Positions 1,894 to 56,500 of a stretch of 64,000 nucleotides of DNA are shown here, one piece after another. This DNA comes from a virus. The DNA lies in IMG/VR virus record IMGVR_UViG_3300045988_026316, one strand, 5' to 3'. A program made the translations under genes and the position numbers. The notes beneath the pieces were generated by a model that saw only the letters and a program-made list of their open reading frames with translations, had not been told where the DNA came from and did not search any database. The stretch's first letter is position 1. Each line of letters begins with the position of its first letter.

Positions 1894-2385
1894 TTAATTT
1901 AAAATTGATGCGATGTCTTTTGTGTCGATAGAATAATCGTCATTAGAGTCCATAACATCGTTCATCGAGATCTCCATAGAAGATCCGTCAGTCATCTTCA
2001 GACGCAGCACGTTCTGTTTATCACTACCCTTATCGTAAGAACCAGATTCAATTGCAACACCACCCTCTGTTGCAATAGATGACATATCAGCAGATCCAAT
2101 AACAATCCCATCTGGAGAGATTAGTTTTACAGATTTAGTTGCTGGATCATACTCAATCGTCATTTTGTTCACATATGCCTAGAGCATTTTCATATCTACA
2201 CCAGAACCACCACCCTTTCCGATGAGTTCCATTGTGGATTTTGCATCAAGGACATCTCCGAATTGAAACTGAGAGCTATCCACGATTTTCAATTTATCAG
2301 GCTCTTGCATATGTAAAATACGAGGTGTGACAGGAGTACCTGCCGCATTCTGTATATTTGTACGTCTAAGCTTTGAATAAATCAT
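1894..2385 (-). CDS. hypothetical protein; two same-frame ORFs joined across one TAG (2181..2179)
   Basis: The ORF from ATG 2385 ends in TAG. Two codons later the same frame continues into track ORF 1894..2172. An alternative separate start is ATG 2163. Confidence 0.4.
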
Positions 2386-2474
2386 ATTTATATATACGTA
2401 TATACGCAATTACTCCAACCGAAGTTGGAGTAACGCAAATTTAAAAGTCTTTTATGGAAAATATTCTTGTAAAG

Positions 2475-2549
2475 TGGAAGTTGGTGGATTCGAACCATCG
2501 ACCTTCTGCTTGTAAGGCAGACGCTCTAAACCAACTGAGCTAAACTTCC
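2475..2549 (-). tRNA. tRNA-Val(TAC)
   Basis: Cloverleaf with acceptor GGAAGTT/AACTTCC, D arm GCTC-AGTTGGTTTA-GAGC, anticodon arm TCTGC-CTTACAA-GCAGA and T loop TTCGAAT. The T stem has one A.C mismatch. Confidence 0.85.
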
Positions 2550-2577
2550 AAACAACCTTGATGGCTGTTGTTATATA

Positions 2578-3135
2578 TTATTCTGCAGAAGGACCTTGCA
2601 TGTTAGAAGGACCTTGCATCATGATAGGCCTATCCTGTTCTGAAACAACAGGTTCACTGTCGTTAGATGTATCAGCATCAGAATCTACAGCAGTCTGTGC
2701 ATTATCAGAAGATCCGTAACCACCATCAGCTCGATCAGATTCTGAAAGACTATCAGACTCAACAAACTCTACATCAGGAACAGGCAAGATCACCAGCTGA
2801 GCAAATTTATCATCAACCTTGTATACGGCAGGAACAACATCTGTAGTTGCTATAAATTTACCAAGTATTTCACCACGATAACCTGAATCAATCACGCCAC
2901 AACTATTCGTAAGACGTAATGACTTCTTTGCAATAGATGATCTTGGCATCAGCTGAGCAAAGTATCCTTCAGGAATCTCTAATGCAAGATCTGTATGATA
3001 TACGATCACCAACTGACCACACTCATTCAACTCTGTCGTTATACCCGTAGTAGTTAGATCAAAACCAGCATCTGTCTTATGTGCTTTTGAAGGCATTACA
3101 GCCTTATGAGAAAGTTTCTTGAATTTAATTTCCAT
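2578..3135 (-). CDS. dut: dUTP diphosphatase (dUTPase)
   Basis: Carries the motifs AGFDL, PRSS, GVIDSGYRGE and GGYGSS in the order typical of trimeric dUTPases. It has an acidic/Ser-rich C-terminal extension. Confidence 0.9.
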   Translation of the reverse strand: MEIKFKKLSHKAVMPSKAHKTDAGFDLTTTGITTELNECGQLVIVYHTDLALEIPEGYFAQLMPRSSIAKKSLRLTNSCGVIDSGYRGEILGKFIATTDVVPAVYKVDDKFAQLVILPVPDVEFVESDSLSESDRADGGYGSSDNAQTAVDSDADTSNDSEPVVSEQDRPIMMQGPSNMQGPSAE

Positions 3136-4466: not shown

Positions 4467-4558
4467 CGCTGGGGGCAGGACTCGAACCTGCTTCCATAAG
4501 GATCCCATCTGGTATTATTCCAGACTTCACTTTGCTCTACCTCATAAGCTACTCCCGC
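4467..4558 (-). tRNA. aberrant type-II tRNA-like element (possible pseudo-tRNA)
   Basis: It has T arm GCAGG-TTCGAGT-CCTGC, D arm GCTT-ATGAGGTA-GAGC and a long variable arm. However, the acceptor GCGGGAG/CCCCAGC has 2 mismatches, 9 extra nt precede the anticodon stem, and the loop AATAATA has A33/T37. Confidence 0.35.
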
Positions 4559-18906: not shown

Positions 18907-19338
18907 TCTATCATCAGATAGTATCTGTAAATAGAACTACAAAGTCCAACTCAAGAGCCTAAGAACCATGAGCGCTTTTGAAATATTAATAACCCGATGT
19001 ATCACTCAATATGACCGCAGATGGATCATGATTGTTTGGAGCCGTAGAAACGTATTTTAAAAGCATAAGAATCGACTTATCACACAGAGCCATGAGCCAA
19101 TGTGGGACGAAAACACTCTAACAGGGGTGGATAAACTACTGTCGTATCAAATGATCGAACATGCAAGAACTATAAGTCTTTAAGGCCCCTACATATGCGT
19201 GTAGGTTCCGTCTTGAAGTGTGTTTTATCAAAGAGAATATAGTTAGCCCAAACAGAATCTTGAATCAGTTTTGGAATCTCTAACTATCGCAGTATTTCGT
19301 AGCGTGCTGCATCCATAGGGAGTTTGGCCATTCTCTAT

Positions 19339-19399
19339 GGAACTATGTGTGGGGATGAGTTAATCATACAAGACGTGGGTTCGAATCCCACTAGGTCCA
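19339..19399 (+). ncRNA. D-arm-less tRNA-like element TLE3
   Basis: Acceptor GGAACTA/TAGGTCC pairs at 6 of 7 positions. The T arm is GTGGG-TTCGAAT-CCCAC, and there is an internal imperfect hairpin around AGTTAAT. Confidence 0.4.
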
Positions 19400-19626
19400 C
19401 GAATTCCATAAGTTTTTTAATTGATGTTTTTTAATTATTGTTTATTATCGTAACTCATAGGGTAACGGTTCGTGAGAATAGTTACTCATTTTATGGGCCT
19501 AACTGGTTTTGATTGTATGAGGAAGTAAATCCGTTAACTGCGCATTAAACATCAACTGGCGATTATAATATCGTAGATTACACTCACATAGCGTAAGTGC
19601 TAATCAGGTTCGACTACCAAAGTGTC

Positions 19627-19673
19627 ATGGGCGAGTAATAGGACTGTATGGGGTTCGATCCCCCACGCCCAAC
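19627..19673 (+). ncRNA. acceptor/T-arm minihelix TLE4
   Basis: Acceptor ATGGGCG/CGCCCAA pairs at 6 of 7 positions. The T arm is TGGGG-TTCGATC-CCCCA, with only a 15-nt connector. It ends 16 nt before ATG 19689. Confidence 0.4.
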
Positions 19674-19688
19674 TAAAACAGAATCAAT

Positions 19689-27935: not shown

Positions 27936-28007
27936 TGTCCCGTGGTGTAAATGGAAACACAACAGATTTTGGTTCTGTCATTCATGGTTCGAACCCATGC
28001 GGGATAA
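27936..28007 (+). tRNA. tRNA-Gln(TTG)
   Basis: Acceptor TGTCCCG/CGGGATA with a U1-A72 pair, D arm GTGT-AAATGGAA-ACAC, anticodon arm ACAGA-TTTTGGT-TCTGT, and T arm CATGG-TTCGAAC-CCATG. Confidence 0.85.
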
Positions 28008-28064
28008 CTAGGTAACTTACGAGGCACTCGAATTCAACTATGTTTTACTTTAAAGATATCAAAT

Positions 28065-28598
28065 ATGAAGAAGAATAAGAAGTTGAATGCCAATGATATT
28101 ATCAGCACTCGTAAGCGTCTCGATAGTGAGATTGCCACCTATTGGTCTTTTATCAAGGCCGAGAACACATTGCGTAATAACGCTCTGAAGTTTCGTACAC
28201 ACAATCTTCTGGAGCTATATAACCAAATTACGCAGAAGATTGAGCACCGAATCCTGATTAAGGGTTTGCTCAATAATCTTAACAACGACAAGCTTAGTTT
28301 TAGTAGTTCTGAGTTTATGAAGACTCATTACTATAACATTTTCCGTCTTCAGGAGTGTCAGGAGCAGATTACGAAGCTTAATGAGATTCGTAAACGCTGT
28401 CTTGCACCTCAATTGAAGGCTCAGAAGGGTAAGAAGGCGCTCGGTTATAACGAGGTGTTTACCCATGAGAAGATTTCATCTATCATCAACAAGCTTGAGT
28501 TGATGGTGGCATCTTGCAAGAGTGCAATTGCCAAGTATAATGACGAGACGCAGATTGAGATAATTGACAACAGTCTCGATGCCGTTCTTGCGGCATAA
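28065..28598 (+). CDS. hypothetical coiled-coil-like protein
   Basis: Track ORF. Confidence 0.65.
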   Translation: MKKNKKLNANDIISTRKRLDSEIATYWSFIKAENTLRNNALKFRTHNLLELYNQITQKIEHRILIKGLLNNLNNDKLSFSSSEFMKTHYYNIFRLQECQEQITKLNEIRKRCLAPQLKAQKGKKALGYNEVFTHEKISSIINKLELMVASCKSAIAKYNDETQIEIIDNSLDAVLAA

Positions 28599-28779
28599 AA
28601 CAAGATAGAGCTTAGTGTTTTGGACTGCCCAGAGGGGATTCTGATCGATGCAGAAAAAGCTCACAGAGAGCGTTTAATCAGCACGGCTTAACAACTAACC
28701 ATGAGACGTGTTAGATGCGCTTAGAAGGCCTGTATGAGGCCTTAAATCGAATGTATCACACACTAAAGACATTATCAAA

Positions 28780-29700
28780 ATGAACACATATAATATCGAC
28801 AAGCAGTTTAAGAAGTTTTGGAAGATTAGTCATACAAAGAGCGCATTGTTGTGGAAAATAATGTGTTTTTTGGAAACCAAAAGAGGTCAATCATTCGTTA
28901 ACAACCTGCACAAATTCTCTTTGAAAGAGCTTGGCATGAGGTACGGTATGAACCTTATGACTATTAACAATAGTAAGGACGTATATACAATCATCGATAA
29001 GGCGATGAATCTGTGTAACATGAAACCTACTCCAGGAGCCCCGTATAAGCCCTGGAATGTACCTGAGAAGCCAAATTATCCCATGTACCTTACAAGTGGA
29101 CGTCAGCCCATTAAAACGATCCATACGGCCGTTTATAGGCGTTTTCCGCACACTAAGAAGGTTGAGGACTATGGTTGGGACATCAAGTATCGTGATATCT
29201 CTGACGTAGGATTGTTGGATAACAAGCGTATTTATTGGCGATATGAGTATTATCGTGATTATACGAAACTTCTTGAGAAACATAAGATGGAGCGTTGGGA
29301 GCGTAAGCACCCACGTCCTACGGATACGATGCTGAAACAAGACCTCTTCCCTGAGATGCTAACAGCAGCATGGAAGAAGCGAGAGGGTGAAGCACATAAC
29401 TACATACGTAATCTTGTGAAAGAAAAGTATGACAAATCATCTGTACCGTGTATCGCACGAGTCAAGAACTATGATGGCACGTACAAGAATGAGATTGTGA
29501 GTTGGATCAGTGATCCGCATAACAATATCGGTCGTATAAACAATGACGACTATGCAAACAACTCGTTAGTTCGTACAGGAGCAAAAGATCTCCTGTCATA
29601 TTCCATGAACAAAAATGTTGTATGCGGGTACATACAGAATCGAACTCAGACGTTAGGTCGTACATTGACGATGGACATGATTCATCAGATTGCTGCCTAA
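28780..29700 (+). CDS. hypothetical protein
   Basis: Track ORF with the upstream box CATTATCAAAATG. Confidence 0.65.
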   Translation: MNTYNIDKQFKKFWKISHTKSALLWKIMCFLETKRGQSFVNNLHKFSLKELGMRYGMNLMTINNSKDVYTIIDKAMNLCNMKPTPGAPYKPWNVPEKPNYPMYLTSGRQPIKTIHTAVYRRFPHTKKVEDYGWDIKYRDISDVGLLDNKRIYWRYEYYRDYTKLLEKHKMERWERKHPRPTDTMLKQDLFPEMLTAAWKKREGEAHNYIRNLVKEKYDKSSVPCIARVKNYDGTYKNEIVSWISDPHNNIGRINNDDYANNSLVRTGAKDLLSYSMNKNVVCGYIQNRTQTLGRTLTMDMIHQIAA

Positions 29701-29705
29701 CGTGA

Positions 29706-29744
29706 GACCTATTTAGCACTATAATGGTGCTAAATAGGTCTTTT
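29706..29744 (+). terminator. strong rho-independent terminator
   Basis: A 14-bp stem GACCTATTTAGCAC/GTGCTAAATAGGTC with loop TATAATG, followed by TTTT. Confidence 0.7.
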
Positions 29745-29825
29745 GCGAATGTGGTGGAACGGTAGACACGTAACACTTAGGATGTTATGCTAAATAGCGT
29801 GCAGGTTCGAGTCCTGTCATTCGCA
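29745..29825 (+). tRNA. tRNA-Leu(TAG), type II
   Basis: Acceptor GCGAATG/CATTCGC, anticodon arm TAACA-CTTAGGA-TGTTA, variable arm GCTA-AA-TAGC, and T loop TTCGAGT. Confidence 0.85.
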
Positions 29826-29936
29826 CAATGCATATTGATTGATTTTAAGTTTTTAGTTATTGGAATTTCTTATAAACAAGTCTGTGTCACAAGCGTGTGA
29901 TGAAAATACTCAGGTGTGTGAACATATGAGTATCTT

Positions 29937-30009
29937 GACTCCGTAGCTCAGAGGTTAGAGCAGGGCATAGTTAATGTCAAGATCACAGGTTCGAGTCCTG
30001 TAGGAGTCG
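29937..30009 (+). tRNA. tRNA, probably Asn(GTT), atypical anticodon loop TAGTTAA (A33)
   Basis: It forms a standard 73-nt cloverleaf with D arm GCTC-AGAGGTTA-GAGC and T arm ACAGG-TTCGAGT-CCTGT. Position 33 is A rather than U, and the 7:66 pair is G.A. Confidence 0.55.
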
Positions 30010-30139
30010 CTTTGGTTAATTGTCTTTTTATTAGCATTTTTTACTTTAAATTAAGGTTCTGCAATGATTTGATGATACCACAAAAACATAGTTGCTGTGA
30101 AACAGCTATGTTTTAGCACTAACAGCGGTTAGTGTATTT

Positions 30140-30212
30140 GCCTCTTTAGCTCAGTTGGTAGAGCACGGGCTTTGTACTCCCGGGGTCGTTGGTTCGAATC
30201 CGACAAGAGGCT
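30140..30212 (+). tRNA. tRNA-Thr(TGT)
   Basis: Acceptor GCCTCTT/AAGAGGC, D arm GCTC-AGTTGGTA-GAGC, anticodon loop TTTGTAC, and T arm GTTGG-TTCGAAT-CCGAC. Confidence 0.85.
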
Positions 30213-30218
30213 CTATAT

Positions 30219-30304
30219 GGCGTGATGGTGAAAATGGTAGACACGATGGATTTAAGATCCATTGGCCAGTAATGGTCGTGTGGGTTCGAACCCCACTCGC
30301 GCTA
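30219..30304 (+). tRNA. tRNA-Leu(TAA), type II
   Basis: Acceptor GGCGTGA/TCGCGCT with 2 G.U pairs, anticodon arm ATGGA-TTTAAGA-TCCAT, long variable arm GGCCA-GTAA-TGGTC, and T arm GTGGG-TTCGAAC-CCCAC. Confidence 0.8.
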
Positions 30305-30390
30305 CGTGTTATTTTGTTTTTCCATTAGTTACAACATGTGGTTTTTTTCCATTTATTTCTCATACGGTCTGTGAAGATAGTATGAGACCC

Positions 30391-30463
30391 GGGCCTTTAG
30401 CTTAGTGGTTAAAGCAGCTGACTCATAATCAGAAGATCACAGGTTCAAGCCCTGTATGGCCCA
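30391..30463 (+). tRNA. tRNA-Met/Ile2(CAT)
   Basis: Acceptor GGGCCTT/ATGGCCC with one mismatch, anticodon loop CTCATAA, and T arm ACAGG-TTCAAGC-CCTGT. Confidence 0.8.
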
Positions 30464-30678
30464 CACAACACGAACAGCTGAAATATGTGCTTTGAATATA
30501 AGCAGTAAGTCGTGGCAAGCTTACTTTAAAGTATTTAGCCTTCATGTACTGATAAATATGATTGTTCGTGACACATAACGGCTATAGACGTATAGATCGT
30601 AAAGCCAAAGCCTCTGATGATTCAAGCAATGGCGCAGAACGTAGGCTGCAGTTAGCAACTCACTATAGTTTAAGTTGC

Positions 30679-32690: not shown

Positions 32691-33260
32691 ATGATTATTG
32701 AATTAGATACAAAACTTGCGGATTTACCGCAACAACTCAATATGAACCAGTTGGTGTTCCTAAGTATGGTATTAGACGACAATCACAAAAATAATCAAGA
32801 CGTCCAAAAAATTGTCAGCCTAATTACGGACGATGAAATATCATACTTAGTTTCTCAGGGACTTATAACCTCGATAGAGAGAGGCAATTCAATTACGTAT
32901 CAAGCAACTGATCAGCTTAAAAACCATCTAAAACCTGAAAAGGATTGGTTTGATCAGTTTTACGATATGTACCCCGTCTATATTATGCGACCAGATGGTG
33001 TAAAAACCTATCTTAGAGCAAATGTAAACAAATGTAGACGCATGTTTAATTCAAATGTTGGAAAAAGCTCAGCAATGGCCCAACATCTCATTGACTGTCT
33101 TAAGTTTGAACTCGATAAAAAGAGTAGAACAGGAAAGTTGATGTATATGAAGACAATGTGGCGATGGTTAGTTGACCATCAGTGGGAAGAATCTGAGGAA
33201 GAAATGCAAGACCAAGTAAACGAAACAAAACAACAAAGTTATGGAACAGAACTCATCTAA
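32691..33260 (+). CDS. hypothetical replication-module protein
   Basis: Track ORF lying between the polymerase and the helicase. Confidence 0.6.
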   Translation: MIIELDTKLADLPQQLNMNQLVFLSMVLDDNHKNNQDVQKIVSLITDDEISYLVSQGLITSIERGNSITYQATDQLKNHLKPEKDWFDQFYDMYPVYIMRPDGVKTYLRANVNKCRRMFNSNVGKSSAMAQHLIDCLKFELDKKSRTGKLMYMKTMWRWLVDHQWEESEEEMQDQVNETKQQSYGTELI

Positions 33261-34170
33261 TCTTAAGATACGACCAATGTCTATAGTAGCTCAAGAAGCT
33301 ATTGACTATATACGTGGTAGGAAGGAACACAGTGTTGTGTCTTTAAGAACAAGATGGAATAAGCTCAACTCTCAGTGCATGGGAGGTATAGAGCCAAACA
33401 CTGTTTATACGTTTACTGGAATTTCAGGAACAGGTAAGAGCTCTCTTGCAAATCTTATCGCAACGGACATTATTGATCTTAATCCGAGTGAAGACATTGT
33501 GATTCTTAATTTTTCGTTAGAAATGGTTGGCTTTAGGCAGGTCGGAAGGACGCTCTCAAACAAGCTTAAGAGAACGACTTCTGACCTGTATAGTTCTGAA
33601 AAGGACCTGGACGACAAAACCTTCGCTAGTGTCGTATCAGTAGCTTCCAAGCTAAAGAAGTATCCAATCTACTTTGTAGACAATCCTGGTACTTCTACGC
33701 AAGTTAAGAACACAATTATGGCATTCTATGAAAAGTACGTAAAAGATACTGGAAAACATTTCATTATAATGTACGATCACGCACTTCTAACAACGCGTGA
33801 TGGTTCAGTATTGGAGACAATAAGCAACCTGCTTCAAGTCTTCATACAAGCTAAGAAGTTACCTCTTACGAGTGTTATACTTCTTACACAAATGAATAGA
33901 AACATAGAACAGCCAGAAAGGATTAACAACCCATCGGGACATTTCCCGATGAGAAGTGATTTATCATCATCAGATGCTGTATTCCAAGGCAGTGATTATG
34001 TCTTGGCAATGCATCGACCGGAATTGTTGGGAATAAGGGAGTACGGACCCATGAAGTTACCAACAGAGAATAAGGTTTACATGCATATCTTAAAAAACAG
34101 AGATGCAGGTAAGCCGTGCATCATCGAATTCGAGAACGATCTTAAGTTCAACAATCTGATTGAGTGCTAA
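33241..34170 (+). CDS. DnaB-family (RecA-fold) replicative helicase-like ATPase
   Basis: Walker A is GISGTGKSSLA and Walker B-like is FIIMYDHALL. The layout matches a DnaB C-terminal domain. Confidence 0.75.
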   Translation: MEQNSSNLKIRPMSIVAQEAIDYIRGRKEHSVVSLRTRWNKLNSQCMGGIEPNTVYTFTGISGTGKSSLANLIATDIIDLNPSEDIVILNFSLEMVGFRQVGRTLSNKLKRTTSDLYSSEKDLDDKTFASVVSVASKLKKYPIYFVDNPGTSTQVKNTIMAFYEKYVKDTGKHFIIMYDHALLTTRDGSVLETISNLLQVFIQAKKLPLTSVILLTQMNRNIEQPERINNPSGHFPMRSDLSSSDAVFQGSDYVLAMHRPELLGIREYGPMKLPTENKVYMHILKNRDAGKPCIIEFENDLKFNNLIEC

Positions 34171-34682: not shown

Positions 34683-36251
34683 ATGATAACACTACCTACA
34701 AGTAAGGTTCCAGCAACATCCACGAATCCCAAATTTTTGATTCTTTATGGGCGCCCTGAAGTTTTGGGGCTTTGTCAGGTGACTGACATCGAAAAAACCT
34801 CTAATTTCTGAAACCACTTTATGTTTTTCAACGTTTTTATATAAAACACGGAAAATTAAAGTAAATCAGAAGCTAAGTTATGGTGACACAAAAAACTATT
34901 GAAAGGTACACAAAATTTGTCGGGCTTGATTTCGGCTGTATTCATGTAGACAGCATCGATTTGTCAAAAATCAAGTCAAACAGAGTTTATTTCAACTGCA
35001 CATGTACTGTGTGCGGAAGAAAATTACACATGCGATCAGACGGCTTGCGTAAAACAAGAGTTGGCTGTAATAAATGTATGGGTATTTGGAGAAAATCCCA
35101 TTTTGAAGAAATCGAATCTAAAAATCCTATTAAAAAAGACATTAGAAACAAATATTCGCATTTTAAAAACAACGCAATTGTGCGTGGAATCAATTTTGAT
35201 TTAACAAAAGAAGACGTTCTAAATATGTGTGAACAAAAATGTTTTTATTGCGGAAAAGAAAGATGTCTTGGAATAGACAGGCTCGATAATTCAAAAGGAT
35301 ATACTGTAAAAAATTGTGTACCATGTTGCGGATGCTGTAATAAAATGAAGATGGATTTAGAACCAAATTTCTTTTTATCACAGATTGAAAAAATTCACAA
35401 CAATATTGAAACCATAAAAAGTTCATCGACTATCTCGAAAGAGAGTACATCTAAAACTATTGTAGATGGAAACGGGGTTCATCTCAAATTTGATAGAGAT
35501 GGTGATATAGTCAAGTCTGCATAGTGATATGCAGCAGTTCATAAGAGAACGCATTCGAAGTAGTGAATCGAATGGAATAAAAACGAAATGCGGAAAAACG
35601 TCCGCTCTTGCCCAATTAGATGATAATCTAATAATCGATCTGGAGGGAGGAAGTACGTTCATTGATGCTATGGCTGTACAAGCCAGAAACGTTAGTGATC
35701 TTGGAGAGATTGCTCAAGCCATTAGAGCTAAGAACACTGAAGTGGGGCATAATTTCTACAGACATATCACTATTGATAATGCCACTCGTTTAGAAGAAAT
35801 CTGCCTAGGTTACGCCGCTACGTTATACAAGAAAACTCCACTTGGTAAGAAGTGGGAAGGAACAGACGTCAAAACTCTTCCGAACGGATCCGGGTATTTA
35901 TATATTCGCCAAGCCGTCCGCAAAGTTATTGATATGTTCCGTGAATTGTGTGATGAGTTCATTCTAGTAGGTCATGTAAAAGACATACAGATTGAACAGA
36001 ATGGTGAAGAACTTAGCCAGATGGCCCTCGATTTAGTGGGAAAACTTGGAACTATCATCTGTGGCGAATCTGATGCTGTTGGACTCGTATATCGTAAAGG
36101 TAACGAAACACATGTCAGTTTTGTTGGAGGTGATGGTACAACAAAGGAAGCACGAGCTCCCCATTTGCGTGGAAAAGACATTATTATTGCAACAGGTAAT
36201 GATGATGGTACGATAACCACGTATTGGGATAAAGTGTACAAGAACGATTAA
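34683..36251 (+). CDS. AAA_24/Sak4-like P-loop ATPase, two exons 34683..34757 + 35586..36251
   Basis: Exon 1 ends ...KFLILYGRP and exon 2 begins KCGKTSALAQLDDNLIIDLEGG. Only the joined product has an intact Walker A motif, G-RPKC-GKT. Confidence 0.7.
34758..35585 (+). mobile_element. group I intron carrying an HNH endonuclease ORF
   Basis: The exon ends GCCCU, which pairs with the guide GGGGC (34766-34770) and puts U.G at the splice site across an 8-nt loop. An R-like box GTCAGGTGACTGACA lies at 34774-34788 and the S box GATATAGTC at 35504-35512. Two 3' hairpins follow, and the terminal G is at 35585. Confidence 0.7.
34880..35524 (+). CDS. HNH homing endonuclease (intron-encoded)
   Basis: It has an N-terminal Cys4 knuckle, and GIDRLDNSKGYTVKNCVPCCGCCNKMK is a typical phage HNH core. 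The stop TAG is followed directly by TGA. Confidence 0.8.
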   Translation: MVTQKTIERYTKFVGLDFGCIHVDSIDLSKIKSNRVYFNCTCTVCGRKLHMRSDGLRKTRVGCNKCMGIWRKSHFEEIESKNPIKKDIRNKYSHFKNNAIVRGINFDLTKEDVLNMCEQKCFYCGKERCLGIDRLDNSKGYTVKNCVPCCGCCNKMKMDLEPNFFLSQIEKIHNNIETIKSSSTISKESTSKTIVDGNGVHLKFDRDGDIVKSA

Positions 36252-36939: not shown

Positions 36940-37006
36940 CTCGTGAACGGTTTTCCTTAGTTTGTGTGTTTAATAGGGAAGAGAGGTTCGATTCCTCTCC
37001 ACGAGA
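36940..37006 (+). ncRNA. D-arm-less tRNA-like element TLE7
   Basis: Acceptor CTCGTGA/CCACGAG pairs at 6 of 7 positions. The T arm is AGAGG-TTCGATT-CCTCT, and a 7-bp stem with a 17-nt loop replaces the anticodon arm. It ends 24 nt before ATG 37030. Confidence 0.4.
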
Positions 37007-37029
37007 CTAACATAGAACTTATAAGTCAA

Positions 37030-38031
37030 ATGTATAGCACAAGAACAGCTAAAACAATGAGTTTAAAAGACTTATTGGATAAGTTGGATGATTATGCTAT
37101 TTTCTCGTATTATCTTGGTGATTTTAAGATCAACAAGCTAATGAATAGTCCACTTCGATCTGATGACAAGAATCCATCGTTTGCTGTATTTAGAAGCAGA
37201 ACTGGAGGGTTGTTGTATAAAGATCACGGCACTGGTGATGGAGGTAACGCTATTGATTTTATCAAGCGATATCGAAACATCAACACAAGACCAGAGCTTG
37301 AAAAAGAACTACTTCGCATAATAAGAAGGGTTAATCCTTCTCAATCCTATCATATCTCCACATACGATTACTCTACGTACCATGATATGGATTTCGGAAT
37401 AGTTCGACAACCGTTTACTAGCGTAGATAGAGATTACTGGAAACAGTTTTCGGTATCTATGTCTACGTTAAACTTATATCAAGTGTTTAGCATTAAATAT
37501 TTTCTTTGTAATAGAATCGTCCGTGGAATCTACAAAGAATGTAATCCTATGTATGCGTATAAGGTTGGTAACAAATTTAAAATATATCGACCTTTAGCCT
37601 CTAAGTATACTAAATGGCGTTCTAATCTGACAAATGAGGACGTACAGGGATTATCTGAATTACCCAAGGAGGGTGGGAGTATTCTCATTATCACAAAGTC
37701 TCTTAAAGATGTGATGGTACTACATGAGATGGGATTTAATGCTATTGCCGCAGCAAGTGAGACAACATTCATACCTGAAGATATACTGGCTACTTTGAGT
37801 ACCAAGTGGTCTAAAATACTGATACTGTACGATCGAGATGCAACAGGAATGTTAAATGCTCGTAAGTTAAGTAAGAAGTATGGATATGATGCATTTTTCA
37901 TCCATAAGAGCTTTAAAGCCAAAGATATATCAGATGCTGTTAGAGACAACGGCTTTGATAAAGTAAAACAATGGTTGACCAAAACGTTAAGTAGATATGA
38001 AGATACTATGATACAAAATGTCGAAAGTTAA
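37030..38031 (+). CDS. DNA primase (TOPRIM domain)
   Basis: The N-terminal segment is SPLRSDDKNPSFAVF...YKDHGTGDGGNAIDFI. The TOPRIM region is ILIITKSLKDVMVL...ILILYDRDATG. The track start at 36964 would translate the tRNA-like element. Confidence 0.75.
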   Translation: MYSTRTAKTMSLKDLLDKLDDYAIFSYYLGDFKINKLMNSPLRSDDKNPSFAVFRSRTGGLLYKDHGTGDGGNAIDFIKRYRNINTRPELEKELLRIIRRVNPSQSYHISTYDYSTYHDMDFGIVRQPFTSVDRDYWKQFSVSMSTLNLYQVFSIKYFLCNRIVRGIYKECNPMYAYKVGNKFKIYRPLASKYTKWRSNLTNEDVQGLSELPKEGGSILIITKSLKDVMVLHEMGFNAIAAASETTFIPEDILATLSTKWSKILILYDRDATGMLNARKLSKKYGYDAFFIHKSFKAKDISDAVRDNGFDKVKQWLTKTLSRYEDTMIQNVES

Positions 38032-50500: not shown

Positions 50501-53500
50501 TTGATATGTAGGAACAAGTTTGTTATCATACCAATTATTCAAAAGAACATCATTAAGATCAACAGTAGGAATAGAATTGAGCTATACTAGTTTTCTATTG
50601 ATGAAATCTGCATAACCGCTCTTCTTACGCCAAGATGCTGGTACATACTTAAACATCTTTGTAAAACCTTGAGTATCTCCAGATGTTATGAAAGCGTATA
50701 CAACAAGATCTCTTGCAAAATTACGTATATATTCAGCTACTTGCGGTTGTTTATCATTCTAATATTCCAACAACTCATTCCAAGCGTTGATTATATAGTT
50801 CGTATTAATACCACCATCATCAACAAAGTTTTGAAGCTTGACAAACTTCAGATCATCATACGTATCAGGACGTTCTCCAAGAACAGCATCTTTGGGAGAA
50901 TATTTAACTCGTTTTCCAGGGATAAGCATTTCTAACAATAGATTACCCTGTAAATCAGAATAGTTACTGTTATGATATATCATAGGTTTGAGACGAGATA
51001 ATCTGTCAAAAATAGTATTAGCTCCTCCAAGTAATCTACATACTCCGTTAAAATTACCATTTATAGATATATTCAGCTGAATCTTATCGTCTTTTGCTGT
51101 CAACACCTTTAACGGAAGTGCATTGCCGTTTTTATCACGAGGAATATATTGTTGAGGATTTCCATCTTTATCCTTGTACCAAAGTAGTATAGGTTGTCCA
51201 ACATAACTCTTTAAAGAATGCTTATTGCCAGTAATTGACATACTATTTGTAGAAGCATCATAAGAGAATTCAAGATCTTCAGAACTAGAGTTGACAAGAT
51301 CGTGCATATATCTTGGATTATCAGATATTCTAGAAACATAATCATTGAAGAACTATGACTTAATAGCTGCAGACAATGCCTTTTGTGCTGATTGTGCAAA
51401 TGATACAGATAATGATGTATTACCAGCCATTGTATTCAGCTAACGTAACATTTGTATGAATCCCGTAGTTGATGACATAAATTGTCCTCCGAGTATAACT
51501 TTTGTTAGCGAAATTGCATTTCTAGTCTTCGTACCAACATAACTATGTTCAACCAGATCTAACAATCCAGCAGGTTCGAACAATGCACCAACATCTCCTT
51601 TCTTAATCAATACGCCATCTTCGTCTGTAGCAAATTCAAACAGTTCGTCAAAACCTTCTTTATATACAAGTTGTTCAGCAGCACTCTTACCATGCTTTTT
51701 AGTATCAATCTTACAGTATTTAACAAGGTTTGCTAAAGCATTTGCGTACTTGCTAAATTGAACGTATGCGAGATAAATACCTAGCTGACGAGACTTTAGG
51801 CCTTTTTGATCAGCGACATCATTTCCTTGTGCATAATCCCTAGCGTCTTGTTTAAATTGTTCACTCTCAAACAACTTCTTTATAGCTTCATTTATAGCCT
51901 ATATAGACTCTTTGTCACCAGCATCTATTAAACTTAATGCATCATCAAGAGTGTTACCATCGAATGTTACATCTTTACCAAAATACTGTTCAGCAACATC
52001 TTTAATAGACTACTGTTGTCTGCTATACGTAGATCCGTTCTATTGCATGTATTGAGACGAAGCTTTTACATAAGCATCAGCCATTTGTTTCATAATAGGC
52101 TGAGTTAAGAAGTAGAATGTGTTTCCGCCCCATCCTGTACGTAATAACAGGTTTGTAATATTATACGAGAATGGATTGACATTAAGTCTGGATATCCAAG
52201 GATCTTTAGCGATATCTACGTGGGCATTGATCATAGCTGAAATCCATGACATGATTGAGTTACCATCAACATCAAGTTGCTTATCAAGTCTACTTAATCC
52301 AAGCGTGCTTAAGAGACTTGACTGGGATTCTCTGAATGATATATGATATATCATTGTTAGGATTTGATTATTGTTGTTCAATGCAAACGGTCCAATACCA
52401 ACCTTACCTGTGATATAATCGTTCTTAGATGCTGTTTGACGAGCTAATGAGTAGAATGAATATGGAGATTCTATTTTAGATTTACCAGAACCCTCTATAT
52501 CTTTAAGAACACTCTTAGCTAAGTCAGTATCGTTATCAATAGATCTATGTAATATCTGTACGTTACGAGGTCCGCCATTATCCTTTTTATCGATAAGTAA
52601 CGCCAAATACATGTCGATAATCTTATTCTGAAGTCGATGTTCCTCTGTGAGTTCAGATTCCTTAACAAGACGTTGTTCTACATAACCATATATGTTTTCA
52701 ACACCCTCGGTCTTATAATTAAGACCTGATAAAAATAATTTATCAATATCCATTTATATTAACTTATACTTACGTATAAGATTAGACTATATCTTCACAC
52801 TTACGTGTGTTTCCAATTTCCACATTACTGTGTACATCCAACGAACGTCTTCGTTGGCTCAAATCATAAGTTATTTTATGTATCATAGACGGTACTTGTA
52901 ATACATATGGTTTTACTATATTTATAAATTTAACACCTTCTTTTGTACCACAACACAATGAATACGAATCTTCTTTATGACCTTCATGAAACATATAAAA
53001 TGATATGTCCCATACTTCTTTAAAATAATCAATAAGAATTTGAGTATCATGTTTTGTAGTACAAGTAGATATTTTAATATAGAAACCCATCTGTCTACCA
53101 TCTTTGGTCTTACGTATATTTATATGACCATCGTCCATATACCAAATAGCTATCCCTTTAGCATCTAATCGATTTAGCAATTTACGATTAGCTATTTGTT
53201 TTATTGGTTTATAAAACACTCTACGTAATACTTTAGTAAACGGTATAATGTTTAATTGTGTATATACAACATCAGACCCTTTATTATATCCTGCAACACA
53301 GGTGTATGATTTACAACCATTGTTACGAATACCAGCATTATTTAATTGTTTTATCTACCACTCAAGATAATCTTGTTGTTTATATGAACGAGCTATCTTA
53401 TATACATTATTTTTAGAAATCGTACCATCGCCTATTAGCATTGCGATTAGTAAATTTCTACTATCTTTATTAAATTTAGTTTTCATAACGATAAACGTAT

Positions 53501-56500
53501 GTTATTTATGATTTGACATTAGTCGTTGAACCTTCTTCTATAAACGTATACTATAGAAGCTTGGCTGCTGATTATCCATGTAATATGGACTTCCCAGCAA
53601 TTAAAGAAATTTAATGACTCCAATATTTTAAAGTCAGAACCAGTAATCTTTGTAAACTCTTCTGGTAGAATAACAGTATCGTTAACAACGGGAATTACAT
53701 CGACACATCTTAATGCATGGATTGAAGACTGTGCCTGCGTAGGAATACGATATGCTAATATATTTGCTTTAGCCTCTTCTCCGATTATACCGTTGTTAAT
53801 AAGCCACTAACGAGCCTCTTCAAAAGATAATTGACGTTTTTCTAGTTTTGTTTTATATATGGTGTTGCCATCCTTATCAACCTTAATATTACCGTCTTTA
53901 TCCTTAAGAGGTATTTTTGCTCCATCCTTTGTTAACTCAAACGTTCGTTTTGTTTGTATATCAAAATCTCCAAGAAGCTTCTTAAAGTAGTCTATTGATA
54001 ATACGCAGTCCATAGAACCCTCTTTGTTTATCATCTACAGACGCTTACCGTTGTATAAAGTTACATTATTGTCTCCAACTATACCGCCATCACTACGTTC
54101 AAAAAGCTTAGATCCCTACATTCCCCATACAGATCTTTGAATAAACGCAGCACCAGGAGTTTTCGTATCAATAACTTCTCCATTGATCTTAGCAATAAGT
54201 TTACTCTCTAAGAAGTTAGAAGACTACACAGCATCTACAGGCATTGATAAACGATAACCAGATTTCTCGTCACCTTCAACCTGAAGTGATGATAATAAGT
54301 TTATATTTGGATCATCACTCTTGATCATATCAAGAACAGTTTCAATAAACTTCTTCTAATCTATTACAACCCTTGATAGATTACCATCATCAATAACTTT
54401 TCCGTCTCCATCTATAATCTGTCCGTCTTCATTGGTTTTGAAGAATTGTTTCATTACATTCTACATACCAATGTCTGACAACCTGTTCATAGAATTCATG
54501 ATTGTATCTAAGAGATCTTGTCCTTTTATCTTAGTTCCATCACGTAATACATAATAGTTATTGACATTCAAGTTACTCATTACAATTTTAGTAGCTTGAG
54601 TACCGATGTTCATGTATTTTTTCTCATTCGGATCAGTATTCAACTGCTTACGTAAATACTTAAAACGTTGTTCGTATGAGTTGAATTTAAATGTATCTAA
54701 GAACAATGGCTTTTCATCTCCTTCGACACTGGAGTAATCATCCCATTTAATAGGCTGAGATCCTTGCGAACCAACTTTAATAGCAGAGTTAATCTTTAGT
54801 TGATCAACACCTTGTTTTTTCATTGCATGGAATATGTTGGCTGTACGACCATATGCAATACTTTCAAAAATCGGGAACAATGCATACTTATCGTAATACG
54901 TAATCATTATTCCAGTTTTAGGATCTCTACGACGTCCAAATGCAGTATATTTCTGAGTACCGATGACTGTTGTAACAATTTTGTTATACGCATTCAATTT
55001 AGTACGAACAGTATATATATTACCACTACGTAAAATCTTAAATGCTTCTTCAATATCACTGCTCCAAGAACCAACCATTCTCAGCAAAGCTTCGCACATT
55101 TCATCAGTTATGTACGCACCACCATCAGCAACATCTATACCATCGAGTTTTTCATCCTTAGACAACCTATAACTATCTATAACAGATTTAGCCTTCTTTT
55201 TTATAACAGCAATAATACCTTTGTGCTTTGATTCTAGAAGTTTTTCGATCTCTTCATCACTCATGCGTTCAAGCTGGCTGTCAACTTCATTACGAGCTTT
55301 TTGTTCAAGATTATATTTGCGCCTACTAGCTTGTATATCAGTCTCATCTTTATATTTTTTGAAACCCTCCAACTCTTTTTCAATATACTCATCACATAAC
55401 ATTGAATAAGCAGTCTGTCTAAGCTGACCAGTATATACAAGAGGTCTCATATATTCAACCTGGGGAGACTCAATCATTTCATTATCAACCTCTGCTGATA
55501 CATAAACACCTTTCTGATAACGATCTGGTAACCCAACAAGACCTTCGAAGTTATTTGTTCCAGTGGAAACCATACCACCAAGACGTTTAAGCTCATCGAC
55601 AGTTCTATCAATCAAGTTACCATCATCATCGTATTTCCACTTATAGAAAGCAGGATTTCCAGCAAACAATCGCTCAACCTCATGTCCAGATATCAAAGCT
55701 TTGTTAGAAAGATCGTTGATATAAGCAACTATTGCTTGGTTAAGTATCTTATCACGTTGTACCTGATCTTTTTCTTGTCCCTTCTTGATATTATATTTAG
55801 CACATATAGCACTATAAATACCTTCAATGGCACTATTGTTTAAACCTATATTTTTAATAACATAGTTCTTCTTGTTATCAAGTCCGATGACATCGATAAG
55901 GCCTAAATCTGCAAGATTCTGTATCTCATTTCTGGTATTATGATCAAGATTTCTAGCGATTAGTCTACGTTGTTCAGAAATAGGTTTACTAAAGAAGTGC
56001 TCTTCAGCTGTTTTAATATTATCTTTATATGTATGGCCATCCTTTTTATCATTAAATGACACAAATACCTCATCGCCATTATTATCAAGCTCCCACACAC
56101 CAAGTAGTGATGAGAATCTAGCACCTTGTTCTTTGGTATAATAGTTTGCAACAGCTGTAGATTTAGTGCCGTCTTCATTCATCTAATCAAGAGCTTTTTC
56201 AGCATCTTTAACAGATTGATATTCAGAATAAGCATAGCTCATAAACAGATCTATAACATCTTCTTGTTGCATGATGTTTCCATCAATCATACCTATACTT
56301 TCAGCAATTTCAGGTACAGATAATATTGTTCCGTTTGGAGCATACATCTTGAGATAATCAATTCCAGGAAGTTTTATTCCACTAACGAATGTCCAAGATT
56401 TTTTATCAGACAATGTTGGCATTATAACACCACCTGACTCAAGTATACAAAGTTTTGATATACAGTCTTCAGTATGACTTATGTCAAAATAATCCGAACC

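Follow-up and report, generated by a model that had tools for sequence, protein, structure and literature searches.

The window analysed here is a 64,000-nucleotide (nt) stretch of DNA from the IMG/VR virus record IMGVR_UViG_3300045988_026316, and all coordinates without another accession or contig name are positions in it, on the plus strand unless stated otherwise. At 34683-36251 it holds a gene for an AAA_24/Sak4-like ATPase in two exons, separated by an 828-nt group I intron (34758-35585) that interrupts the Walker A motif where its Pro codon meets the following Lys codon (GRP|KCGKT) and that, judged from the sequence comparisons set out below, is very probably functional and spliced. Exon 1 (34683-34757) comprises 25 codons and encodes the peptide MITLPTSKVPATSTNPKFLILYGRP; its open reading frame (ORF) begins at ATG 34683 and runs through LILYGRP to T34757, beyond which an unspliced message would continue with EVLGLCQ and reach a stop at 34811, and its final five nucleotides, GCCCU, form the 5' strand of ribozyme helix P1. 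The ATPase frame resumes at A35586, 828 nt past the end of exon 1, with KCGKTSALAQL, and exon 2 (35586-36251) ends in KND and a stop codon. The intron starts with GAAGUUUUGGGGC and ends in AAAAACG, and has a G+C content of 33% as compared with 42% for exon 2. When the exons are joined at the predicted junction, GGGCGCCCU-AAAUGCGG, they encode a protein of 246 amino acids (aa), and the Walker A sequence GRPKCGKT is present solely in this spliced product. A preliminary description of this DNA had already proposed the exon end, the resumed frame, the dependence of an intact P-loop on splicing and a terminal G, and all four are found in the window as it gave them, the last intron base being G35585.

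The exact boundaries of the intron are given by alleles that lack it. With the spliced protein as query, IMG/VR yielded 145 relatives, among them eight intron-less contigs (L001-L007 and L061) that share 93-98.7% DNA identity with the window over the spliced coding sequence (CDS). In these eight, the sequence reads GGGCGCCC(T/C)|AAATGCGG, with AAATGC directly after the junction, which lies exactly at the predicted splice point, and since the intron ends and exon ends share no base, the boundaries are unambiguous. The uninterrupted protein of L001 matches the predicted spliced product at 100% identity, so that the alignment with homologs suggested earlier as a check on the P-loop reconstruction proves seamless. 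Intron-plus and intron-minus genomes diverge by only 1-2% over 6.7 kb, and the presence or absence of the intron is a polymorphism within one phage population. In GenBank phage records carrying the ATPase gene, the P-loop site is uninterrupted in every case (46/46). A further allele, on contig L011 (IMGVR_UViG_3300045988_048007, 2553-3006), has this intron in the same position, shortened by a 367-nt deletion that lies wholly within the loop of P6, where the intron's own endonuclease ORF resides. This deletion reduces the ORF to ATG GTG ACA TAA and leaves every ribozyme helix intact; the L011 intron is thus a natural ORF-less derivative, and the destruction of its ORF together with the retention of its helices points to selection on the RNA in that allele.

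The identity of the host gene is also sharpened by joining the exons. Against Pfam AAA_24, the spliced protein scores 74.2 bits over profile positions 5-175, well above the cut-off of 27 bits, vs 64.2 bits for the downstream ORF alone, whose match begins only at position 12. Against PHROG 124 (Sak4-like single-stranded DNA annealing protein), the corresponding scores are 86.7 bits (E 4e-24) and 70.1 bits, and with both profiles the match of the spliced protein reaches the profile start. On these matches we class the host gene as encoding an AAA_24/Sak4-like ATPase, the Sak4 and recombination labels being taken from profile annotation only. The central claim of the preliminary description, that a group I intron splits the Walker A motif of a recombination-type ATPase, is therefore upheld by the boundaries, by this profile match and by the ribozyme fold.

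The 5' portion of the ribozyme opens with P1, in which the internal guide GGGGC (34766-34770) pairs with the exon end GCCCU (34753-34757) across an 8-nt loop and places a U34757.G34766 wobble at the cut, as had been proposed. The guide covaries with the exon, reading GCCCU/GGGGC in the window and GCCU/GGGC in the relatives L205-L207 and L221, and in every related copy U is the last base of the upstream exon and G the last base of the intron. P2 is a hairpin with a GNRA loop (GUCAG-GUGA-CUGAC, 34774-34787), all five pairs of which show compensatory change among lineages. The 5' strand of P3, AACCUC (34796-34801), pairs with GGGGUU at 35474-35479 and forms a pseudoknot with P7. There follow P4 (34805-34811/34866-34872), which encloses P5 (34816-34821/34857-34862) and a P5 extension within 34805-34872, and the 5' strand of P6, UUAUGGU (34878-34884), which holds the endonuclease start codon at 34880 and pairs with ACCAUAA at 35411-35417. 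A related intron in the DNA polymerase gene of cr53_1 (NC_055889) has its P6 strands, UUAUAUAAUU/AAUUAUAUAA, at the equivalent place.

The 3' portion of the core begins with the R box GUUCAUCGACUA (35421-35432, with GTTCATCGACTAT at 35421), which is located inside the endonuclease ORF and supplies the P7 5' strand (35428-35432). Between P7 and the 3' strand of P3 stand two IA-type hairpins (35433-35468), P7.1 (35433-35436/35441-35444, with a GAAA loop) and P7.2 (35448-35453/35463-35468). The P3 3' strand (35474-35479) and P8 (35480-35484/35497-35501) then occupy 35474-35501, followed by the S box GAUAUAGUC (35504-35512, with GATATAGTC at 35504), which overlaps the endonuclease codons D-I-V and provides the P7 3' strand (35508-35512). 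The R-like box and near-consensus S box noted in the preliminary description are therefore both in place, and both align to the consensus of the Rfam group I model RF00028. An R...S pattern at the spacing seen in the window occurs in more than 120 viral contigs, as against a chance expectation that we roughly estimate at less than 1. Where two 3' hairpins had been claimed, we count three after the S box, P9 (35517-35523/35528-35534, with a GUGA loop), P9.1 (35537-35540/35547-35550) and P9.2 (35552-35558/35568-35574), together spanning 35517-35574. The intron closes with the terminal (omega) G at the 3' splice site (35585), and all related copies likewise end in G.

The structure was tested for covariation with L011, with L205-L207 (whose HNH proteins are 59-62% identical to that of the window and whose introns occupy the same codon boundary), with L162, L096 and L139 (~73%) and with the cr53_1 DNA polymerase intron (~33%). 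Scripted helix tables show all 13 helices forming in five lineages, with junction lengths identical throughout. In a gap-free, register-preserving alignment, standard pairing holds in 99.6% of the 511 cells, and both partners have changed in 33 of the 73 pairs; the window copy itself has no mismatch in its 73 pairs. None of 500 shuffles reached the observed values, and sliding the 3' partners by 1-3 columns left 0-6 compensatory pairs and 32-45% pairing. Compensatory changes are found in both P7.1 and P7.2; P7 is invariant and is therefore uninformative in this test. A plain MAFFT alignment of the ORF-less mini-introns was dropped, as P1, P3, P5, P6 and P8 fell out of register in some lineages.

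The ORF carried in the P6 loop (34880-35524) encodes 214 aa and matches PHROG 3118 'HNH endonuclease' (E 1.4e-18) and PHROG 1035 'endonuclease VII' (E 5e-17). No Pfam domain was found among the 120 best-scoring of its 428 homologues. Its only significant sequence match in the Protein Data Bank (PDB) is between residues 128-160 and PacI (PDB 3ldy, E 0.0024), and a fold comparison of an AlphaFold model built on 42 homologues likewise gives PacI as the sole significant match in the PDB (E 4.8e-4, probability 1.00); the model has a mean predicted local distance difference test score (pLDDT) of 84.6. Two strands (131-134 and 146-149) and a helix (151-157) are modelled at pLDDT >90, and the residues invariant among the homologues include D133, R134, N145 and N154 as well as C121/C124 and C149-C150/C153, with two Cys4 clusters in all. 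The intron protein and PacI share the motif CLG(I/V)DR.D...GY...N...C..CN..K; however, PacI is a 142-aa restriction enzyme, whereas the intron protein is extended at its N-terminus by a Cys4 domain and a helical region. The product is thus best viewed, from its sequence and its predicted fold, as a PacI-like variant of the HNH superfamily (beta-beta-alpha-metal type) and not as a canonical H-N-H enzyme, and the earlier designation as an HNH-type endonuclease holds in that sense.

The C-terminal end of this protein bears on the ribozyme rather than on the enzyme. The model is confident up to residue 181; starting with residue 182 (nt 35423, the start of the R box), pLDDT is under 50. Codons 182-214 (35421-35524) overlie P7, P7.1, P7.2, the 3' strand of P3, P8 and the S box, such that the last ~33 codons are at the same time ribozyme core. 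Among the 42 homologues, down to 31% identity, this tail is invariant (S182, T184, I185, S189, T190). Because the tail is disordered in the model and overlies the core, its peptide sequence is conserved for the RNA and not for the protein.

Several observations weigh against a functional group I intron of this kind and deserve to be set out together. P1 consists of only 5 base pairs (bp), and a possible P10 of only ~3 bp. Because we chose the helices to which the covariation alignment was registered, the alignment is biased in their favour; an artefact is nevertheless very unlikely, given that junction lengths do not vary and that compensatory changes are many. No Pfam family matches the endonuclease at E <=10, and the canonical first His of the H-N-H motif is replaced by Arg (D133-R134), as it is in PacI (VDR). 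A co-conversion tract around the insertion site was looked for and none was detected: only a T at position -1 is common to the intron-plus alleles, and three intron-less alleles have this T too. Finally, a search of the whole window with RF00028 at the gathering score gave no match at 34758-35585. In a permissive run, the intron scored 26.3 bits (E 2e-4) against a gathering score of 50 bits, through an alignment of P8, the S box (which includes the P7 3' strand) and P9 only, all 3' of the ORF, with the 5' half unseen. The Infernal check that the preliminary description had recommended gave a divided answer, with no match at the gathering score and a partial one at the permissive setting.

A comparison with the td intron of Pseudomonas phage PspYZU05 (NC_055720) clarifies the low score. 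This control reaches only 49.5 of the required 50 bits and is likewise matched only 3' of its ORF, which argues that the score reflects a limitation of the model for such an architecture; deletion of most of the ORF, as in L011, brings no gain (26.6 bits). RF00028 does not carry its alignment across an ORF in P6 or across P7.1/P7.2. In the Michel and Westhof classification, P7.1/P7.2 between P7 and P3' and P9.1/P9.2 extensions constitute the IA2 (td-like) pattern, and the hairpin layout, the ORF in P6 and the alignment of the 3' core lead us to class the intron as td-like, of IA2-type architecture. The PspYZU05 intron shares the P6-region ORF, P7.1/P7.2 and P9.1/P9.2, and the 3' core of the window intron is 71.6% identical to it over 88% of the query. 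The two differ in host gene (thymidylate synthase in PspYZU05, where the intron lies between split CDSs) and in endonuclease (a GIY-YIG I-TevI there vs the PacI-like HNH here), and the ORF of the window, unlike that of td, continues through P6', P7, P7.1, P7.2, P3', P8 and P7'. More broadly, the 3' core of the window intron matches 393 phage records, including the AR9 terminase gene, which is annotated as a five-piece join. Threshold-based Rfam scans may accordingly under-count group I introns of td-like architecture in phage genomes.

There are phage genes that a free-standing endonuclease has broken into parts, each translated separately, and the insert could in principle be an HNH gene of that sort, with no splicing and with the ATPase made as two polypeptides or broken. 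Public gene calls, which show three separate ORFs, would fit this account, as would the 240-aa ORF opened by ATG 35529, which still matches AAA_24. Yet the 25-codon exon 1 would then have to supply strand beta-1 and half of the P-loop in trans; the 183 nt of the insert that lie outside the ORF would have combined with the tail of the ORF to give a complete group I fold with its 33 compensatory pairs; the U/G rule at the splice sites would hold in every copy without cause; and the retention of all helices in the ORF-deleted L011 would be unexpected if the endonuclease gene alone mattered. We regard this explanation as scarcely credible. Hardly more probable is that the group I intron has decayed and lost the ability to splice, which would leave the ATPase a pseudogene in this genome. 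The low RF00028 score and the reliance of the splicing argument on sequence comparison would accommodate it, but a decayed copy would not be expected to be free of mismatched pairs, nor its exons to encode a protein identical to that of an intron-less relative. Moreover, the same intron is found at this site across hosts with HNH proteins 57-89% identical to that of the window, which speaks for long-term retention under selection. Other classes of intervening sequence were rejected on structural grounds: an intein by in-frame stops and the position of the ORF in another frame, a group II intron by the lack of a reverse transcriptase or domain V and the presence of a group I core, and a bulge-helix-bulge intron by size and structure.

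A subtler question is whether the intron splices only with the aid of a protein, either a host factor or an intron-encoded maturase. Many group I introns need helpers in vivo, and the shortness of P1 and P10 would be compatible with such a need, as would the overlap of the ORF with the core from P6' to P7', through which translation competes with folding. Conversely, td-type phage introns self-splice in vitro, and the ribozyme core here is complete; nothing specific speaks against a helper beyond this, and we consider strict dependence on one unlikely. Under the preferred reading, that of a spliced group I intron, the ATPase gene would be transcribed through the intron and the RNA would fold into P1-P9.2. 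An external guanosine would then attack after U34757, held in P1 by the guide GGGGC, and the freed exon 1 would attack after G35585, joining the exons into a messenger RNA for the 246-aa ATPase with its P-loop intact. The catalytic steps are inferred. The endonuclease, whose activity is predicted from its family, presumably homes into intron-less alleles: it would cut these in co-infecting phages, and repair would copy the intron in. The presence/absence polymorphism among genomes that are 98-99% identical lends homing its only, indirect, support.

The ATPase gene is a hot spot for introns, with at least five insertion positions and endonucleases of the HNH, LAGLIDADG and GIY-YIG families. The site occupied in the window, here termed site B (GxP|KxGKT), is also occupied in L011, L205-L207, L212-L214, L217, L218 and L221. 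Site A (NP|R), 27 nt upstream of site B, is occupied in L162, L096, L139 and L216 (the intron of L162 at ~780-1607) and in L220 (~1370-2270); the junction of the L162 type is confirmed by intron-less alleles that read AAAACCCT|AGATAT. Site C lies three codons downstream of site B (GRPKSG|KT, or GGU|...G|AAG) and is occupied in L064 (IMGVR_UViG_3300008136_000003, 1926-3000) by an insert of ~1,075 nt whose limits follow from comparison with the intron-less L037. A LAGLIDADG ORF lies towards the 5' end of this insert, and its last ~230 nt form hairpin-rich RNA; a search of the insert with RF00028 gave no match. Elsewhere in the ATPase gene, L223 has an HNH insert at about residue 105, and cr50_1 (our L211) has one at about residue 158 whose core is related. 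In L218 and L219, a GIY-YIG ORF stands downstream of a 113-aa fragment, and in L216 a 206-aa ORF follows a 150-aa fragment; in L216 and L218 these are second endonuclease ORFs.

The distribution of related introns between sites A and B suggests repeated switching. In neighbour-joining trees of the HNH proteins (trimmed to residues 1-179) and of the ribozymes (without P1 and P2), the site A intron of L220 is sister to the site B intron of L221 (173/200 HNH and 171/200 ribozyme bootstraps), and the L162 type, also at site A, falls within the window-type site B clade (196/200 and 141/200). The site A introns are monophyletic in 0/200 bootstraps of either tree. These topologies indicate two independent moves from the P-loop site B to site A. 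Both sites read CCU|A (..CCU|AAR at site B and ..CCU|AGA at site A), and a short guide-complementary sequence is all that is common to the two nearby sites. In both site A introns, the guide retains its 3' C, to which site B (GCCCU or GCCU) would offer a G as partner but site A offers only a mismatch. The hosts of the L162 type read UCCA|AAG at site B and so are without the required U; in L220, its own site B (ACCU|AAA) keeps the U, and guide pairing there is no worse than at its site A. A tentative explanation for the moves from B to A, of which there would be at least two, is guide-directed transposition, in which the intron would reverse-splice into RNA that is then reverse-transcribed and recombined; we consider it possible, if somewhat doubtful. 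Transposition by reverse splicing has so far had only circumstantial support, from introns in ribosomal DNA (PMC3984707). Alternatively, the switching may stem from gene conversion where introns at site A and site B were co-resident. If guide-directed transposition is correct, a phage protein-coding gene with recurrent moves and with intron-less alleles for both sites would provide a tractable test case, and the site A and site B introns of the ATPase gene represent a concrete system for the study of how group I introns reach new sites.

The nearest named relatives of the window belong to the Crassvirales, subfamily Oafivirinae (Bohxovirus, cr130_1), at 83% protein identity, and the source is a Delta-group-like crAss-like gut phage. 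The ATPase gene is flanked by genes for a DnaB-type helicase (33241-34170) and a DnaG-type primase (36964-38031). In the main text of Yutin et al. (2021, PMC7886860), ATP_43b, an AAA-domain ATPase, is listed as a target of group I introns in Delta-group crAss-like phages, and introns were recognised there through their endonuclease domains. The intron of the window resembles those of ATP_43b in phage order, in the replication-module ATPase affected (in the interval between DnaB helicase and primase) and in the kind of element. The present account differs in that the site GRP|KCGKT, a full secondary structure, intron-less alleles and further sites are defined, ribozyme structures, splice sites and insertion positions being absent from that text. 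The class of introns in the ATPase of crAss-like phages was thus already known, and what is new here is an additional member, the recurrent site switching being the most interesting lead. A literature search combining Sak4 with group I introns found nothing relevant.

Two named relatives extend the comparison. In cr53_1, a related intron lies in the DNA polymerase gene (gp42/gp43/gp44) and carries a P6-loop HNH ORF whose product is 33-34% identical to that of the window. In cr50_1 (NC_055868, 54222-55973; gp073/gp072/gp071), a related ribozyme with a homologous P6-loop HNH splits the ATPase at about residue 158. The 3' cores of both align over 76-92% of the query at 72-78% identity, with the best local segments of cr53_1 reaching 96-97%. 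Both differ from the window in insertion site, and their RefSeq records show separate CDSs and not introns.

Misannotation also affects the ATPase start itself, and it is systematic in databases. ATG 35529, inside P9, is a false ATPase start, and in public contigs the ATPase is called from within the P9 region of the intron as a protein of 222-240 aa (L212, 2150-2872; L213, L214, L217, L220 and L221). These mis-called ORFs have a spurious N-terminus and are without the beta-1 strand or the GxP of the P-loop. For the window, gene callers give a 240-aa ATPase with a false, ribozyme-encoded N-terminus together with an orphan 42-codon ORF; recognition of the intron restores the 246-aa ATPase with its intact P-loop.

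The window contains another group I intron at 52765-53636 on the minus strand, which RF00028 detects in two parts (45.8 and 25.2 bits) and which carries its ORF in the P8 loop. This ORF (52782-53219, minus strand; 145 aa) matches only the C-terminal half of Pfam LAGLIDADG_2 (positions 83-168), which may reflect a truncation or a frameshift in the endonuclease; the 237-aa ORF next to the intron has no match in Pfam. The preliminary description had noted that in both introns the S box overlaps the last codons of the endonuclease, D-I-V, and this is accurate, the 52.8-kb ORF ending in EDIV across GAAGATATAGTC. The further proposal that the two introns share a ribozyme scaffold does not hold, since they have only the universal group I core in common: the ORF sits in P8 in the one and in P6 in the other, and at 52.8 kb the 3' strand of P3 directly follows P7, with no P7.1 or P7.2, hairpins that are present in the ATPase intron.

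The tRNA complement of the window comprises a cluster of six genes (Gln, Leu, Asn, Thr, Leu and Met) at 27936-30464 and a tRNA-Val gene at 2474-2549 on the minus strand, a set typical for crAss-like phages. ARAGORN also reports a 'tmRNA*' (transfer-messenger RNA) at 19310-19687 on the plus strand, with the tag peptide GDYNIVDYTHIA; Rfam has no tmRNA match there at the gathering score, and the call is probably a false positive. At 4467-4558 on the minus strand, where ARAGORN makes no call, an Rfam tRNA match of 92 nt and 29.4 bits stands at the threshold, and it may correspond to the tRNA with an intervening sequence mentioned in the preliminary description.

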